DNA of 64,000 nt from Nitrospirae bacterium MYbinv3. Lineage in GTDB: Bacteria; Nitrospirota; Thermodesulfovibrionia; Thermodesulfovibrionales; Magnetobacteriaceae. The stretch covers positions 5,127-69,126 of the forward strand of contig PEAB01000009.1 of NCBI GenBank assembly GCA_002753395.1, given 5' to 3'. The notes below the pieces were generated by a model, which saw nothing but the letters and a program-made list of their open reading frames with translations, made no database searches and was not told the origin of the DNA. Both the position numbers and the translations under genes were made by a program. Shown in pieces: positions 46,046 to 52,346 of the stretch (positions are counted from its first letter, which is position 1; every line of letters starts with the position of its first letter).

Positions 46046-47107
46046 TTACTTCCCGCGTATCTCATCCCAGTACTCATCGGGCATGTCCTTACACAACATC
46101 ATTGCCCCGTTGGCCCCGGCAAACAGTGGTTCCTCTATCTTTATAACCTTTCCGTAGCCGAGTGTATTCCTCATGTAATCCTCTATCTCCTTGCGTAACC
46201 CTATTATCTGGCTGCCGCCGCCGGCAAGGAGGACGTTTTCCTTGAGGTTGTTCTGAAACTCAGGGTCAAATTCGGCTATAAGCGTTCGTATGCCCTCTAC
46301 TATGTCAGGGACTATAATCCTGCAGGCCTGTCGCAGCTCATCGGTCACGTCACGTTTTTCTGGCTTACCTCGAACAGGTACCTCTATAAACACCCTCTCC
46401 CCCTGCGCGGAGATGAAAGCGTTTTCTTCCTTAAATTTCTTAACCATACTGATTGTCAGATTGATGTCCTTGTATTTCTTTATAATCAGGTCGTAAAAAA
46501 CCTGGTCCACGTAATCCCCTGCCTTAAAGGTGGTTATCTGGTCCTCTTCCGAAGGTATCGTGCCGTGCATCCTGCACAGGTCAACCGTACCGGCGCCTAT
46601 GTCGATTATCAGAGCGTTTGAAAGCAGGTTCAACCCATATGCCACAGTAAAAGGTTCCGACGCTATCATTACACCATCGAGGATGCCTCGTGCCACATCA
46701 AGGAGGGCCTTCCTGTTCTTCCTGCTTGCAAGGGCTGGGGCCCCAATAACACCCCTTACGTTGAAATCAACCCCGCTTTCCTGTTCACCCTCCTTGGGAC
46801 AATCAACGAGGTGCTGAAGCAGCGCTTTTGCGACATAGAGAGCGTTCTTATACTCCTTTGATTCCACATCTATATCGGCATACTTGATCATACCCTTCTC
46901 AAAGGGCCTGAAGAGGTTTAACGCCATCCTGTGCTTGATAGCCTCATCGCCAAAAATAACGTCTCTGCCAAACATCTTCCGAGATACAGCATCCTTTGGA
47001 AAACCCACATAACTTGGCACAAATGTCCGGACCCCGTTATCGCATGCTATAACACTCCTTGATGTCCCAAGGTCTATTCCAATATTAAGTACCTTCGCTC
47101 TTGTCAT
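46046..47107 (-). CDS. mamK: Actin-like MamK
   Basis: IGIDLGTSRS, SEPFTVAYG, IDIGAGTVDLCRMHG, LLAGGGSQI, AGANGA. Confidence 0.95.
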   Translation of the reverse strand: MTRAKVLNIGIDLGTSRSVIACDNGVRTFVPSYVGFPKDAVSRKMFGRDVIFGDEAIKHRMALNLFRPFEKGMIKYADIDVESKEYKNALYVAKALLQHLVDCPKEGEQESGVDFNVRGVIGAPALASRKNRKALLDVARGILDGVMIASEPFTVAYGLNLLSNALIIDIGAGTVDLCRMHGTIPSEEDQITTFKAGDYVDQVFYDLIIKKYKDINLTISMVKKFKEENAFISAQGERVFIEVPVRGKPEKRDVTDELRQACRIIVPDIVEGIRTLIAEFDPEFQNNLKENVLLAGGGSQIIGLRKEIEDYMRNTLGYGKVIKIEEPLFAGANGAMMLCKDMPDEYWDEIRGK

Positions 47108-47165
47108 TATAACTATTCTCCGTTATGTATTAAGATAGACACAATTCAATTATAGCATAGCAAAA

Positions 47166-47612
47166 TTATGTCTCTTCTCTCAACATAATATTATCCTGCA
47201 GGACCCCTCTTAGTAGGGCCTTTTTATATTCGTCAACCTCTTTCTTGATAATCGTCATTGTGTCGTTTGAGACCACAATGCCGTGTTTTTCTATATTAGC
47301 GAGCCGTTCCTCTATCCTTCGTACCCTCTCCTCTATGACCTCCATCTTTTTATCCCGCTCAACATCTATATTCTTAAAAAAAGTCCTAAACTTCTTTAAC
47401 CATTGACCTACATAGCCAACAGGGGTAGCAACATATTTTAACGACTGACCAATAGGCGCGGTAACATAACCTAGCGAAGGCGCTATTAAATCCATCCCGC
47501 GCCTCATATAACTGTATGACAATAAACCAGTGTACTGAACCGAGGCGACGGAATATAGCCACGTCTCGTTCAACACTTCTTTGCCAGATGATATAATATC
47601 CTTATGGGTCAT
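47166..47612 (-). CDS. Magnetosome-cluster protein (probable Man1 by position)
   Basis: Directly upstream of mamK; C-terminal coiled coil. Confidence 0.55.
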   Translation of the reverse strand: MTHKDIISSGKEVLNETWLYSVASVQYTGLLSYSYMRRGMDLIAPSLGYVTAPIGQSLKYVATPVGYVGQWLKKFRTFFKNIDVERDKKMEVIEERVRRIEERLANIEKHGIVVSNDTMTIIKKEVDEYKKALLRGVLQDNIMLREET

Positions 47613-47707
47613 TTATATCTTACCTCCAAAAATTATCTATCGCTGCATTAAATCACAAAGACATTACAATCGTGTTACCTTACTATTAAAGACAGCATAA
47701 TATAGTA

Positions 47708-47778
47708 TTATAAGAGGGATTTATTCATTTATAAGAGGGATTTATTCATTTATAAGAGGGATTTATTCATTTATAAGA
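47708..47778. repeat. 21-bp tandem repeat, 3 exact copies plus 8 bp
   Basis: TTATAAGAGGGATTTATTCAT at 47708, 47729, 47750. Confidence 0.97.
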
Positions 47779-48033
47779 AGACGGTTTAGTGAAAACAAGT
47801 TATACACCATTTGTCCGTTAAATACGCCTCTTTATCATCTATTTATTTTGTACTAATCGCCTCCTTAAATAAGCAGCTCCTTGCTCCGCTTCGATTACCC
47901 ATCCCTATGTCATTTGCTGTTGTCGCAACTAAAAGAAGTATAACACAGTAAGGCATAAATGTCAAGTATTTTTTTCGGTGGGTGCATAAGGAAGTCGTGA
48001 GGTTTTGGTGTAGAATGGAGGGCTTAGCCATGG

Positions 48034-48200
48034 TAACTATGCTTTTACGCTTTCTGGATTCCTGTTTACCCCTGTTCAAGCCAGGGGCAGGCTGTGGAAT
48101 GACATATTTGGAAAACACTCATTACTGTCATTTCCACAAAAGTGGGGATCCATAGTCTTGAAACCATGAACATTTTTACCCTGCTTTTTAAAGAGGATAC
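48034..48200. repeat. Family C variant with extra hairpin in one palindrome
   Basis: Reverse complement resembles 24561-24695; CCCCTG-TTCAAGC-CAGGGG insert. Confidence 0.7.
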
Positions 48201-48202
48201 CT

Positions 48203-49105
48203 TTAACCAGTGCAGAGTTTCAGGGCGAGCTGTTTGATCTCTCTGGAAAAGGCGGAGACTGCATTGTAAGTTACCAGGGGGGTAGATTTCGCAAGTGATC
48301 TTCTTATTTCAGTGTCTTCCGATATAGACATGAGGACATCGCAGTTGATATCGAGAAACCTGCGTGCGATCCCCTTTATGGCATTACCAACGGTTTTTGA
48401 CTCTTGGAGGTTGTGAACCCTGTTTAGCACCAGAAGTGGGTTGTAGTTGGCAATAAACGCCCGTGCTGACTCTGTTACTTGAGCGTTTATTTCCCTGGCT
48501 TGATTAAAGAGGTCGTCGACGGTTGCTATTTGAGGGTGATTTTCAAAATCCATCGCATCCTCAATGAATTTGACAAGCTCGGATGTTCCTTTCGCCTTGA
48601 AATAGAATAGGAGTTTCTTGTATATCGACGTCTTAATGAAGCTGTATATCTTTATTAACGAGTTAACTTCCGGTGTCGTTATGAGGATCCCCTTGTTGGC
48701 AAAGAACAAAAAATCTACAACACTGTTCGATGAGCCAGCCGCAAGGTCAAGCAGTATGATCTCGGCATTGAGCCTCAGTACCTCTCTGACCAGTCTCATT
48801 TCTTGATGCTCGGACATATTGCTTATACCAGGGATGTTTGATACCCCACATACGACCTTTAGGTTCCTGATACTGGTATCAATTAGTATCGACGATAGAT
48901 TTGGTACCTTCTTTAGTATGAAGTCGTCCAAGTTTACGGTGTCCTTGATACCAAAAAAGGTATGCAGGTTGGCCCCGCCAAGGTCAAGGTCAACAGCTAT
49001 GACCTTTTTGTTTAACATTGCCAGGGCAGCAGCCAGGTTTGCCGATATCGTACTCTTTCCAACACCCCCCTTAGGACCAGCTATGGCTATGACCTGTTTG
49101 TCCAT
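48203..49105 (-). CDS. MinD/ParA/FlhG-family ATPase
   Basis: Deviant Walker A GPKGGVGKS, VDLDLGGANLH, LLDLAAG, ITTPE. Confidence 0.9.
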   Translation of the reverse strand: MDKQVIAIAGPKGGVGKSTISANLAAALAMLNKKVIAVDLDLGGANLHTFFGIKDTVNLDDFILKKVPNLSSILIDTSIRNLKVVCGVSNIPGISNMSEHQEMRLVREVLRLNAEIILLDLAAGSSNSVVDFLFFANKGILITTPEVNSLIKIYSFIKTSIYKKLLFYFKAKGTSELVKFIEDAMDFENHPQIATVDDLFNQAREINAQVTESARAFIANYNPLLVLNRVHNLQESKTVGNAIKGIARRFLDINCDVLMSISEDTEIRRSLAKSTPLVTYNAVSAFSREIKQLALKLCTG

Positions 49106-49139
49106 TTATAGAACAATCTCCTCTCTATCATTGATGTGA

Positions 49140-49619
49140 TTATTTTAGGTTGAGAAACCCGCGCAGGTTATTTAAAAGCGTATCGTCATCTTTGGGTGGG
49201 GGAGGAGATTGCGAATTTCCAGAATCTTTTGAATCCAAAAGACCTTTTACCTTTGAAACGATGAGATCTGGATCAATGGGGAAGGGATTACAAAAATCTA
49301 TGCTTGCGCACTGCACATCAAAGTCCACATTGTCGTTGGAATCCATCAGGACGATTACATGCATCTGTGCAAACACATCTGAGGCGGCCTGCTTAAATGC
49401 CTTTAGTTCAGCATGTGTATAGCTGTAAGCGTCAATGATTACAATCCTGGATATGACAGGGGGAGTTAAACCATCGCTTTTATCACAATATATAGAAAGC
49501 CTATAATTCATAGGCCTGTTATCGGATAAGACAGCAGATACACTCCCCTGTTGCAATGCGTGAAGTATAACCTTTGCTCTAATAGCATTGGCAGAGAATA
49601 TACATACGCTTTCAGGCAT
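49140..49619 (-). CDS. Hypothetical protein with degenerate receiver-like fold
   Basis: IVIIDA and NPFPIDPDLIVSKVKGLL resemble the receiver beta3 and beta5-alpha5 segments; acidic pocket and Lys not conserved. Confidence 0.5.
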   Translation of the reverse strand: MPESVCIFSANAIRAKVILHALQQGSVSAVLSDNRPMNYRLSIYCDKSDGLTPPVISRIVIIDAYSYTHAELKAFKQAASDVFAQMHVIVLMDSNDNVDFDVQCASIDFCNPFPIDPDLIVSKVKGLLDSKDSGNSQSPPPPKDDDTLLNNLRGFLNLK

Positions 49620-49629
49620 TACAGGTCTA

Positions 49630-50856
49630 TTATTCCAAAGTTAAGGCCATCTTTAGCGCCCCCTTTGCCGTGGCATTGAGGGGATCTTTGGCTATCCTTA
49701 CCTCTGATATGTCGATGGGCATGTTGATCATCCTGAGTACATCATTAAATTTCTCCTTAAACCCCTTGGGCATAGCAGTTCCACCACTTAACACAATGGG
49801 TATTGGGGCTGATATTTTGGGGATGTTTTCGGAAGATGAGATCACTCTACTCAGGTTTTCAACTAACGTGTTGATAAGGTCCATGTAATAGACGTGCAGG
49901 GCAGTCTCCATTCTGTTCTTGGGAAGGACTGAGAGGTCAAGGACTTCTTCCTTTGTAACCTTTATTTTGGTTGCCGGCTCGCCTATCTCACGGCTGACCA
50001 TCGCATCTATATAATCACCGCCCCTCTGGATGCTGAAGGTAATTACCGGTACGGACAGGTACGCCAGACACACATTACACATACCCCCTCCCATGCTTAT
50101 CCCAATACCAGTAAAGTTATCATCTACAAGCTCTTCCATGACAATGGCCAACGCCTCGTTAATGGAGATTGGCGTGTAACCAAAACTACCAAGGTACATC
50201 TTTATGATCGACTCATATCCCGCCACAAATGTAGGGTTATCCACGGGAACCCCAGGGATGCTAAAACATATGTATTCACCAAGTTTTCTTGGCTTCTTCA
50301 CAAGCGTATTTATTATCGCCTGTATGATTGTTATACCATCTTCTTCCTTCGAGCTTAGAAGTCCTTTCTCCATCGGTCTACGGGTGTTTTCGTTAAACAT
50401 GTTTGCAAAGCTCTCAGCGGAATATCCAAGAATGTAGTACAACTTGTTTTTTTCAAAAAACAATACATTATTTTGTGTCAATATCTTCTTAGTAAACATG
50501 GACTGTACGACAGGAAAAAAAGCGTTTAATTGCTTAACTATGTATAGATTGCCTCCCTTGTTCTGAGCCATGACAATATTACTGGTACCAAGGTCAAGCC
50601 CTACTGGCCCCTCAGAGGTTTCTACGTTTTTTGAGGTTGACATTGACACATCAGGCGCTGCTACCCTCTGTTGAGGTGAGGCCATGGGTGGCACCTCCTC
50701 TGCCATATCTCTCATAGCGTAGACAGGTGCCTCTACTGTGAGAGATACTTCATCCCGGGTAACCTTTTCATCTGCTTGCTTGCGCTGCTCCATCTCCGTT
50801 ATCCGGCTCCTTAGCAGCTCAACCTCATCCCTATACTTATTGAACTCATCCGCCAT
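49630..50856 (-). CDS. mad28: Actin-like Mad28 with N-terminal coiled-coil extension
   Basis: VGLDLGTSNIV, INEALA, GISMGGGMCNV, RGGDYID, VLSGGTAMP. Confidence 0.8.
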   Translation of the reverse strand: MADEFNKYRDEVELLRSRITEMEQRKQADEKVTRDEVSLTVEAPVYAMRDMAEEVPPMASPQQRVAAPDVSMSTSKNVETSEGPVGLDLGTSNIVMAQNKGGNLYIVKQLNAFFPVVQSMFTKKILTQNNVLFFEKNKLYYILGYSAESFANMFNENTRRPMEKGLLSSKEEDGITIIQAIINTLVKKPRKLGEYICFSIPGVPVDNPTFVAGYESIIKMYLGSFGYTPISINEALAIVMEELVDDNFTGIGISMGGGMCNVCLAYLSVPVITFSIQRGGDYIDAMVSREIGEPATKIKVTKEEVLDLSVLPKNRMETALHVYYMDLINTLVENLSRVISSSENIPKISAPIPIVLSGGTAMPKGFKEKFNDVLRMINMPIDISEVRIAKDPLNATAKGALKMALTLE

Positions 50857-51229
50857 AGTGAAATTCCCTCCTAAATTTTTTATTAGTTATACCATAGCTC
50901 ATGTTACGCAAAAGCACAGTAAAAAGCATTATTATAAAGTTAAGCATAACTCAATGTTCAAGTATTTTGCAAGATAGGGTGCATCTGAAGTGTAATCATA
51001 GTATATCCTCCTTTGTAGCGACAAGCTAAGTGTTTTGAGGAAGGCAGGGATGAATCTATATTTACTATCCTTTGGGTTGTTCATGATGAAAAGCAGGAAT
51101 AGTCCTATGCCAAATGCGAGACTATATCTTTTAAGTGCTCTCCATATCTCTCCTTAAAGAGGTTACCTGTGTATAAACCTATAAGAAACGCCATCATTAA
51201 CACCACCAAAAACTTATTGATGATCTCTG

Positions 51230-51351
51230 GAGCCTCTTGCAAAAGTACATGTTATATAAAATATAGCAAAAAACTCACTTTGTAAGTAGTTGATATTAAA
51301 TAGTATTTTGGGGGCACGATAATTGCCTGATTTGAGTTTTGCAAGAGGCTC
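51230..51351. mobile_element. Family F MITE-like element (122 bp)
   Basis: Perfect 15-bp TIR GAGCCTCTTGCAAAA / TTTTGCAAGAGGCTC; IHF consensus on minus strand 51283-51295; no clean TSD. Confidence 0.7.
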
Positions 51352-51386
51352 TACTATTTTAATAAAAATATCAAACAGCCTTCATG

Positions 51387-52346
51387 TCAATAAAGCCCAT
51401 CGCCGTCAATAAACATCTCCTGTGTGTATCGGAGCATGTAGTAGTTGTCCTTAAACTCCCCGATAACCGGTGCAACAACTTGCCCCTTAAGCAGCCTTAT
51501 CAAAAACAACGGGCTGTTAGCGCCGGCAGCAAAACTCAGGGCAGCTCCACCTCCAAAACGCGGGTTCACCTCTATGAATTTAACACACCCCTCGTCTAAG
51601 AAACACTGCACCGTGTTGTGCCCCCTGAGAGAGAGCTCAACGGCAAGCCTCTCTGCCTCTTCAATCAGTTGAGGGTTCTTGCTCGTCCTACCGGTAAACG
51701 ACTCACCGCCAAGGACGGCTATACGCTCACGGGGGACAACCGATATAACCCGTCCATTGAAGTCCACAAATACATCGATAGTGTACTCTGGCGCCTGTAT
51801 AAACTCCTGAATGAGTATATCAGGCGTCTCTTCAAACACCCTCATCAACTCCTTCCTGGAATGGATCAAGAAGATACCCCTACCCCCCTTGCCAGTATGC
51901 GGCTTTGCAAACAGAGGGTAGACAATATCCTTCCTTAATTGCCCTGCATCATACAATTGGGGTACAGAAAAAATCATTTTTGTGCAAAACTCGTAAAACA
52001 ACCGCTTGTCCTGACACGTACTGATCGTCGGGGGTGATGAGACCATCACTGTGGTACCTATCTCAGCAAAACGCTCACGATGTTGTGAAAAGATCAGCAA
52101 CTCCTCATCCCCTTTTGGAATAAGAAGCCTGACCTCACGATCCCTGCATATCTCTAACAATCTGGGTATAAACCATGGATCTGCATCAAAAGGCACAAGG
52201 AGATGTTCATCGGCTACATATAGGGCAGCCGACAGTGGACTGACATCAGCGGCTATGACTCTGCCGCCTCCCTCAGAACTCAGAGCATCTTTGAACGAAT
52301 TAATCAGACCTACCTTACGGGAGGCACTTGTTATCAGGACGTTCAT
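51387..52346 (-). CDS. ATP-grasp protein (carbamoyl-phosphate-synthase-like, surface-polysaccharide associated)
   Basis: FAKPHTGKGG, IQEFIQAPEYTID, FIEVNPRFGGG. Confidence 0.85.
   Translation of the reverse strand: MNVLITSASRKVGLINSFKDALSSEGGGRVIAADVSPLSAALYVADEHLLVPFDADPWFIPRLLEICRDREVRLLIPKGDEELLIFSQHRERFAEIGTTVMVSSPPTISTCQDKRLFYEFCTKMIFSVPQLYDAGQLRKDIVYPLFAKPHTGKGGRGIFLIHSRKELMRVFEETPDILIQEFIQAPEYTIDVFVDFNGRVISVVPRERIAVLGGESFTGRTSKNPQLIEEAERLAVELSLRGHNTVQCFLDEGCVKFIEVNPRFGGGAALSFAAGANSPLFLIRLLKGQVVAPVIGEFKDNYYMLRYTQEMFIDGDGLY

Follow-up and report, generated by a model that had tools for sequence, protein, structure and literature searches.

We analyzed a 64,000-nucleotide stretch of contig PEAB01000009.1 from Nitrospirae bacterium MYbinv3 (GenBank assembly GCA_002753395.1, positions 5,127 to 69,126, forward strand), referred to here as the window, and we focused on three adjoining genes, the 5'-most of a complete Nitrospirota magnetosome cluster that extends from 50856 down to about 29050. 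Read along the minus strand, on which all three lie, these are mad28 (49630..50856), encoding a 408-amino acid (aa) actin-like filament protein that belongs to the Volactin/Mad28 family and has about 80 aa of variable extension at its N-terminus; an unnamed gene (49140..49619) for a 159-aa putative pseudo-receiver, hereafter the small protein, in which a CheY-like (beta-alpha)5 domain is followed by a linker and a C-terminal helix; and mad29 (48203..49105), encoding a 300-aa ATPase of the MinD/FlhG type with a deviant Walker A motif. The coordinates were taken from the list of open reading frames, which places 10 bp between mad28 and the small gene and 34 bp between the small gene and mad29, exactly as in an earlier note made from the sequence alone, which had described three co-oriented genes at the head of the magnetosome cluster. 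We are almost certain that the three are the mad28, pseudo-receiver and mad29 genes of a Candidatus (Ca.) Magnetobacterium-type Nitrospirota magnetosome cluster. The third gene was identified as mad29 because its product is 87% identical, over 100% of its length, to the 'magnetosome protein Mad29-2' of Ca. Magnetobacterium bavaricum; it is 45-47% identical to Mad29 of Ca. Magnetoovum.

The locus is a typical example of an already known magnetosome gene set. A 2.6-kb region with 'mad28, mad29 and a hypothetical protein' was published for Ca. Magnetomonas plexicatena LBB01 (Uzun et al. 2022, PMC9376291), with the same three genes in the same order and of the same size as the window trio. The placement differs, since the window trio directly borders the main cluster, ahead of a man1-like gene and mamK, whereas the LBB01 trio lies 1.7 Mb away and that of Ca. 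Magnetobacterium casense MYR-1 is on another contig (L086). A 2022 review notes that Mad29 has an ATPase domain, and such ATPases were proposed to power the assembly of chain bundles (PMC9840458). The earlier note had regarded both accessory genes as having no known magnetosome role, which was mistaken for the ATPase, already named mad29 (PMC9840458, PMC9376291), and correct for the small gene, for which we found neither a name nor a description in the searchable literature. Our literature searches for a ParA/MinD-type treatment of Mad29 gave nothing beyond 'ATPase domain'. The original descriptions in which mad29 was named are reportedly those of Lefevre 2013 and Kolinko 2016. Our additions are a characterisation of the middle gene and of its conservation, a co-occurrence logic at the level of its domains, a clean separation of Mad29 from FlhG and MinD, and a link to a penicillin-binding protein (PBP).

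The small protein had no hit in Pfam, and the receiver model PF00072 remained under threshold. We assembled a family profile of 22 sequences, consisting of the window protein and positional homologues from 21 other loci that are 20-78% identical to it, and this profile matched the solved receiver domains RR468, Spo0F and CheY with E-values of about 1e-6. The AlphaFold2 model (predicted local distance difference test, pLDDT, 74) has receiver topology, with strand-helix alternation from 1 to 5 and the fourth helix not modelled, and the best PDB matches of the model in Foldseek were receivers (template modelling score, TM, 0.65-0.72), the CpaE-type atypical receivers 4dad and 4dn6 being among the top ones. 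From the model and the alignment, the protein can be divided into a receiver-like domain (residues ~1-135), a disordered linker and a conserved amphipathic C-terminal helix at 145-156 (...DDTLLNNLRGFLNLK). When aligned with RR468, the phospho-pocket retains the phospho-acceptor aspartate alone (D63, invariant in 22 homologues). The acidic pair is S9/A10 in the window protein and is replaced across the family, the threonine is M92 (glycine in the family consensus), and the lysine is F113 (aspartate in the family consensus). Because the phospho-pocket is incomplete and the PF00072 threshold is not reached, the small protein is, judging from its sequence, a pseudo-receiver and not a response regulator. 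A receiver-like protein without the phospho-pocket had been described in the earlier note, and the profile and model agree with that description, with D63 as the one residue kept.

The public gene call for the small protein (P0121) is 123 aa in length and starts at Met37. Residues 1-36, among which are strand 1 and helix 1 of the receiver fold, are conserved in 21 homologues, and for this reason we favor the start at 49619 that gives 159 aa. The extreme C-terminus carries a conserved motif, approximately [DE]-x-L-x3-L-[KR]-x-F-L-x-[LI]-x, within a tail helix that is amphipathic (hydrophobic moment ~0.5). The net charge of the tail, neutral to -3, appears to fit a protein-binding peptide better than a membrane anchor. 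We also considered the tail as a MinD-like membrane anchor; the hydrophobic moment is similar, but on account of the charge we ranked this candidate below partner binding.

Mad29 contains the deviant Walker A motif GPKGGVGK(S/T) (GPKGGVGKS in the window) with its signature lysine, D39xD41 and D120, all invariant in 32 homologues; the ATPase had been recognized as a deviant-Walker-A type from the outset, and by its motifs it is predicted to be catalytically intact. The AlphaFold2 model of Mad29 (pLDDT 88.6) matched the folds of FleN/FlhG best (TM 0.83-0.90), followed by MinD and then Soj, and the sequence search returned the same order. Both MinD models scored under their cut-offs on Mad29 (TIGR01968, 73.6 bits with a cut-off of 212.9; TIGR01969, 94.1 bits with a cut-off of 201.75). 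Mad29 does not have the N-terminal extension of the FlhG type, as only MDK precedes strand 1, and its residue 4 aligns to residue 16 of FleN and residue 31 of FlhG. By sequence and model, the protein ends at its last core helix (residues 285-299), with no further C-terminal membrane-targeting segment. A helical insert of about 65 aa (residues ~160-225) is family-specific, conserved and confidently modelled, and could be a docking surface.

We placed Mad29 in a tree of ATPases in which the FlhG and MinD genes of the window's own genome and seven others were identified by their neighbours. Mad29 formed a clade with 99% support in the Shimodaira-Hasegawa-like approximate likelihood ratio test (SH-aLRT); its sister was a second ATPase group, and the two together (100% SH-aLRT) were apart from FlhG and MinD. 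The eight neighbour-identified FlhG genes made up a group of their own. The genome itself has a canonical flhF-flhG-fliA locus (C9:21806-24681, with flhG at C9:22588-23427) and a minC-minD pair on C24, and both this FlhG and this MinD fell in clades other than that of Mad29. A side observation concerns the closest non-magnetosome relatives of Mad29, which are 33-36% identical over a near full-length alignment and are widespread in non-magnetotactic Nitrospirota. These relatives sit in scpA-(HEAT)-scpB-ATPase-DnaJ/HTH_25 neighbourhoods (L109:3523-7801, L111:4001-7419 and, in the own genome, C50:2843-4000), a setting that hints at the descent of Mad29 from a chromosome-organisation ATPase.

A scan of species-representative genomes that started from Mad28 recovered 72 loci, about 22 of which had the order mad28-small-mad29; by phylum, the trio was noted in about 11 Nitrospirota and 8 Desulfobacterota loci, and the carriers were either Nitrospirota magnetotactic bacteria or Desulfobacterota loci with the order mad23-24-25-26-mad28-small-mad29. 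Starting from Mad29, we recovered 14 true Mad29 loci at a threshold of at least 40% identity, 11 of which had an intact Mad28 and the small gene directly upstream. Two loci had the small gene and a Mad28 remnant, one was cut at the contig start (L114) and one was an orphan. Desulfamplus magnetovallimortis BW-1 (L121) was counted as a trio, its middle gene matching the small-protein profile weakly (26 bits). When we picked six metagenome contexts of Mad29 homologues at random, five contained the trio, near FeoAB, MamK, MamI/MamA or Mad23-like genes. The same order was seen in dozens of loci across two phyla, and the linkage of the trio is far beyond chance.

The distribution of Mad29 was similarly restricted. 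Matches at the level of Mad29 (at least 240 bits) were present in 6/6 genomes of the window's family and in 0/245 other Nitrospirota (251 genomes in total), the rest scoring 174 bits or less. Outside Nitrospirota, the Mad29-started scan found true Mad29 confined to magnetotactic-type Desulfobacterota, and none of the ATPases of 38% identity or less to Mad29 in the wider scan had Mad28 and the small gene as neighbours. We used the magnetochrome domain (PF18509) as the whole-genome marker of magnetotaxis, which gave false negatives for two genomes, G001 and G002. These two were rejected as non-magnetotactic trio carriers, with full mam gene sets on the same contig. The MamK model NF040964 was an unclean marker, scoring above its cut-off in Desulfurivibrio dismutans, which gave no magnetochrome hit in our scan.

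The architectures of the small-protein family provided a further line of evidence. In a profile search of 1.8 billion representative proteins, the family comprised about 100 clusters at 50% identity before generic receivers begin, and it had only two architectures, one a stand-alone protein with the tail and the other the N-terminus of a class A PBP. The stand-alone tailed form was represented by 34 distinct sequences in the fetched loci; for 32 of these, Mad29 was no more than 3 kb away, and the remaining two were at contig ends. In the fused form, the pseudo-receiver is the cytoplasmic head of the PBP, without the tail and without a Mad29 of its own. A Mad28 paralogue stood directly before all five fusion forms and almost all of the 34 stand-alone forms, the statement on the fusions being based on the five fetched loci and not on the further fusion clusters of the representative search. 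The own genome has one such pair, a second Mad28 paralogue (Mad28-II, C5:266-1354; ~350 aa, without the N-terminal extension) followed by a class A PBP (C5:1409-3628). The PBP has transglycosylase and transpeptidase domains, and its N-terminal ~125-150 aa belong to the same pseudo-receiver family as the protein encoded at window 49140-49619. Pairs of Mad28-II and PBP were also present in L062, L063, L064, L066 and L123 (5037-8559), and in L123, from Desulfobacteraceae, the two modules adjoin in the order mad28, small, mad29, mad28-II, PBP.

The receiver-like domain goes with Mad28 and the tail with Mad29, as would be expected of an adaptor. Because the globular domain co-occurs with the actin and the tail with the ATPase across both architectures, this sequence pattern supports a putative adaptor role for the small protein. 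Natural fusions of the small-protein domain to the actin or to Mad29 were sought and rejected as candidates, the long family members all being PBP fusions; the weaker long profile matches were generic multi-receiver signalling proteins, and P0256 had no similarity to Mad28. Word-based homologue searches with the small protein and with the PBP head retrieved close relatives only, those of the small protein all named 'hypothetical'. The literature searched for Mad28 and Mad29 yielded no description of the pair of Mad28 and a PBP with a pseudo-receiver head.

The window Mad28 matched the Pfam family Volactin (PF25216) with an E-value of 1.6e-79 and 268.2 bits (cut-off 35) over profile positions 3-321 of 321, and the MamK and MreB models matched it weakly, far under their cut-offs. 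PF25216 is named after volactin, the cell-shape actin of Haloferax volcanii. In the searchable literature, neither the volactin paper nor the Mad28 papers mention that Volactin and Mad28 share a family. The window protein shares 76-87% identity with the Mad28 loci of Ca. Magnetobacterium genomes and falls inside the Nitrospirota trio clade of the Mad28 tree (100% SH-aLRT). Mad28 of Solidesulfovibrio magneticus RS-1 is enriched on late/mature magnetosomes and co-localised with them, and after deletion of mad28 in RS-1, reported in 2025, the chain leaves positive cell curvature, with no shape defect reported (PMC12748827). Mad28 localises by curvature, also in E. coli, and binds membranes (PMC12713370), and Mad28 of BW-1 polymerises in vitro (PMC10653835). 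None of these three studies mentions Mad29 or the small gene. RS-1 Mad28 and its relatives belong to the same protein family as the window Mad28, which differs in that it comes from Nitrospirota, in which several chain bundles are formed.

Stand-alone Mad28-like actins were also present in about 38 Desulfobulbia/Desulfurivibrio genomes that gave no magnetochrome hit (L011, L012, L021-L031, L034, L036-L056, L070, L074-L077; for example L031:7911-8996 of Desulfurivibrio dismutans). They are 60-68% identical over the core, and the group nests within the Mad28 tree. These actins may be left over from lost magnetotaxis or may have been co-opted as a cytoskeleton. Desulfurivibrio dismutans has two MamK-family genes (L081:8235-11044), one of which is above the NCBIfam cut-off (NF040964). 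A metagenome-assembled genome labelled Deltaproteobacteria carries a magnetosome-type cluster (L082, G016:C29:12001-32000) with mad23, mad31, two copies of mamK, mamM, mamE, mamP, mamB, mad2 and mamQ, along with a 521-aa protein carrying five magnetochrome repeats; the stand-alone Mad28-like gene of the same genome (L026) groups with the Desulfobulbia-type copies. Ca. Magnetobacterium casense MYR-1 has three Mad28 genes, of which one (L008:6024-9245) is divergent from mamK without the small gene or mad29, one (L086) belongs to the trio on another contig, and one (L064) is beside a PBP fusion.

In our view, the best explanation of the trio as a whole is that it constitutes a cytoskeletal accessory module for placing magnetosome chains, to which we assign a probability of roughly 0.6. 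A joint role of Mad28, the small protein and Mad29 in positioning magnetosome chains is probable, and we propose only tentatively the specific adaptor mechanism by which the small protein would link the Mad28 filament to Mad29. In this mechanism, the small protein would be a receiver-fold adaptor that is not phosphorylatable in the usual way, and its globular domain would dock on the Mad28 filament. The C-terminal amphipathic helix, carried on the flexible linker, would recruit and probably stimulate the Mad29 ATPase dimer, whose ATP-driven cycle would serve as a switch for where, or how many, Mad28-guided chain bundles form. Short peptides are presented by MinE, FliM/FliY and ParB/McdB to the ATPases MinD, FlhG and ParA, and the short one at the N-terminus of FliM/FliY activates FlhG. 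We liken the step from the tail to Mad29 to these peptides; the trio likewise has a small partner with a terminal peptide. A wider proposal, that the pseudo-receiver is a dedicated coupling domain of Mad28-family filaments, with the stand-alone form coupling to Mad29 and the fused form to a class A PBP, is one that we regard as rather doubtful.

A filament-adaptor-ATPase system was the reading proposed in the earlier note, and none of the three refuting conditions named there was borne out. The ATPase does not group with FlhG and forms a separate clade (99% SH-aLRT); the trio is linked in other magnetotactic genomes of both Nitrospirota and Desulfobacterota; and it is not equally present in non-magnetotactic relatives, in view of the contrast between the window's family and the other Nitrospirota. 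The novelty claimed for the ATPase was the part that failed, the gene being mad29.

Several observations weigh against a dedicated chain-placing module. Three stand-alone small genes (L113, L120 and L121) have no intact Mad28 within 500 bp. In two of these loci, both from Desulfobacterota (L113:301-1927 and L120:3202-4891), the small gene and mad29 are both intact behind a Mad28 remnant of about 110-130 aa, and in L121 a gap of about 530 bp separates the end of Mad28 from the small gene. Mad29 is an orphan in L001 and L118, Mad28 is beside mamK without the small gene or mad29 in L008, L009 and L017, and in L054 and L069 mad29 is encoded on the other strand at a distance of 1.4-2.3 kb. Omnitrophota, Bdellovibrionota, Elusimicrobiota and other phyla from which Mad28 has been reported lay beyond the range of the pattern-based scans. 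Because Mad28-like actins occur alone in non-magnetotactic Desulfobulbia, the Mad28-type filament itself is not magnetosome-specific. In an RS-1 two-hybrid screen that lacked the small protein and Mad29, Mad28 bound Mad25 only (PMC12748827), and no experiment on Mad29 or the small protein was found in the searchable literature. The co-occurrence of the domains fits a tail that binds Mad29 and equally a tail that anchors the protein in the membrane and is replaced by the transmembrane helix in the PBP fusions; the latter is less likely, the net charge of the tail being neutral to acidic.

Among the alternatives for the trio as a whole, the one that survives best is that it is mainly a cell-shape or cell-wall system (MreB- or volactin-like) that would affect magnetosomes indirectly, via curvature or peptidoglycan synthesis. 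We consider it improbable. In its favor, Mad28 is in the Pfam family named for the Haloferax cell-shape actin volactin, the second Mad28 paralogue, here and elsewhere, precedes a class A PBP with the same pseudo-receiver head, and Mad28-like actins are alone in the ~38 Desulfobulbia genomes without a magnetochrome hit. The sensing of curvature by Mad28 even in E. coli (PMC12713370) is in line with it as well. However, every genome in which the tailed small protein and Mad29 were found is magnetotactic, and most of these copies lie within magnetosome clusters; Mad28 is enriched on and co-localised with magnetosomes; and deletion of mad28 shifts the chain with no shape defect reported (PMC12748827).

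Still less probable is the proposal that the Mad29 ATPase works like ParA/McdA, with the nucleoid as its matrix, to segregate chains at division, with the small protein as a McdB/ParB-like cargo adaptor. The deviant Walker A motif, the absence of a recognisable membrane-targeting helix in Mad29, the scpA-scpB chromosome-organisation neighbourhoods of its closest non-magnetosome relatives and a partner with a short terminal peptide, like ParA partners, are all compatible with such a role. By sequence and fold, however, Mad29 is nearer FlhG/MinD than Soj/ParA, and the outcome of the mad28 deletion was mispositioning relative to curvature, with no segregation failure reported (PMC12748827).

We think it unlikely that Mad29 is an FlhG/FleN-type regulator that is independent of Mad28 and links magnetosome formation to transcription or to how many flagella form and where, the small protein then being a FliM-like or receiver-like partner. 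FleN and FlhG are the nearest solved sequences and folds, many Mad29 homologues bear the label 'FlhG' from the Joint Genome Institute, and the activation of FlhG by the short N-terminal peptide of FliM/FliY would offer a precedent for the tail. On the other hand, the genome has a canonical flhF-flhG-fliA locus elsewhere with its FlhG in a different clade, the segment that activates FlhF is absent from Mad29 (3 residues before strand 1), and Mad29 is missing from flagellated non-magnetotactic relatives and strictly syntenic with Mad28. That the small protein is a true signalling receiver, with D63 phosphorylated by an unlinked kinase and switching Mad28 or Mad29, is very unlikely: the receiver fold and the invariance of D63 across the 22 homologues would suit it, but the metal-binding acidic pair, the Thr/Ser and the Lys of the phospho-pocket are replaced across the family, the trio has no kinase gene, and the same domain is the fixed N-terminus of PBPs.

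The trio looks like a separate transcription unit because it has its own promoter candidate and is followed by a 590-bp spacer with a separate promoter-like site before the man1-like/mamK operon. The sigma-70-like promoter candidate of the mad28-small-mad29 unit (50931..50960, minus strand; TGAACA-18-TATAAT, 10/12 consensus matches, from a consensus scan only) is about 75 nt upstream of the mad28 ATG. A strong ribosome-binding site, AGGAGG, is located 8 nt upstream of this ATG, and mad29 has its own GAGAGGAG site. The small gene is likely to be translationally coupled to mad28, as it starts 10 bp past the mad28 stop. The spacer (47613..48202, minus strand) ends the trio unit and precedes the man1-like/mamK operon, whose promoter-like site at 47965-47937 (minus strand) is TTGACA-17-TATACT with an upstream TG (11/12 consensus matches). 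No intrinsic terminator was detected in a scan of the spacer downstream of mad29, and an Rfam search of window 47000-51500 matched no RNA family. The spacer also contains, at window 47708-47778, a perfect 21-bp tandem repeat of 3.4 copies (TTATAAGAGGGATTTATTCAT), between mad29 and the man1-like/mamK operon and just downstream of the 11/12 sigma-70-like site. This array may be a binding array for a regulator.

Beyond the trio, the magnetosome cluster encodes MamK (495 bits), MamP with magnetochrome, MamM, MamB, MamA, MamE, two copies of MamQ and MamO-Cter. The Mad23 position is taken by a HEAT-repeat protein, and the Man5/6 and Mad24-26 positions are taken by coiled-coil proteins. On the other side, upstream of the trio and past 51387, are ATP-grasp and sugar-modifying genes. 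None of the open reading frames of the magnetosome cluster matched the MamJ or MamY model, consistent with the initial remark that neither anchor was seen in the window.

Magnetosome chains are organised in Alphaproteobacteria via MamJ, MamY and McaAB. We know of no MamJ, MamY or McaAB in deep-branching magnetotactic bacteria, in which the placement of chains, including the several bundles of Ca. Magnetobacterium, is only starting to be worked out. The points gained here are a predicted pseudo-receiver with a putative partner-binding tail, a Mad29 that appears to be a motif-intact FlhG-like switch restricted to magnetotactic bacteria, and a PBP head of the same family beside a second Mad28. 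If the wider coupling-domain proposal is true, the stand-alone form would complete a device for positioning organelles in which an actin-like filament works together with a MinD/ParA-type ATPase, whereas known systems run on one or the other of these engines, and paralogous filament-adaptor modules would organise magnetosome chain placement and local wall synthesis or curvature. The idea is directly testable in cultured strains, namely RS-1, which has a working genetic system and a gene cluster reported to carry mad28 and mad29; FSS-1, for which two genes between mad28 and mad29 were reported; and BW-1, which has the trio (L121).

Compared with known systems, Mad29 most resembles FlhG/FleN, its closest solved sequences (75 bits) and folds, with which it shares the ATP-dependent dimer switch of deviant Walker A proteins. 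It differs from them in its separate clade, the missing N-terminal extension and the 65-aa helical insert, and in having a pseudo-receiver gene and mad28, and no flagellar genes, as neighbours in a genome that has an FlhG of its own. The MinD-MinE, ParA-ParB and McdA-McdB systems likewise pair an ATPase of the superfamily with a small partner carrying a terminal peptide, and they position cell structures or organelles. The MinD model is nevertheless far under its cut-off on Mad29, no membrane-targeting helix was seen, and only the window trio has an actin-like filament in the same operon. CpaE/TadZ combines a pseudo-receiver with a MinD/ParA ATPase as a localisation factor for Tad pilus assembly, and the fold resemblance extends to 4dad and 4dn6. 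There a single polypeptide contains both, whereas in the trio each has its own gene, the receiver domain varies together with the actin and not with the ATPase, and no pilus genes are near the trio. ParM-ParR and MreB-RodZ-PBP share with the trio the order of an actin-like gene followed by a small adaptor gene; the candidate adaptor of the window has a receiver fold, in contrast to the ribbon-helix-helix of ParR or the helix-turn-helix of RodZ, and there is no DNA centromere. For the Mad28-II module, the parallel is that a filament would likewise be tied to a peptidoglycan synthase via a cytoplasmic domain.

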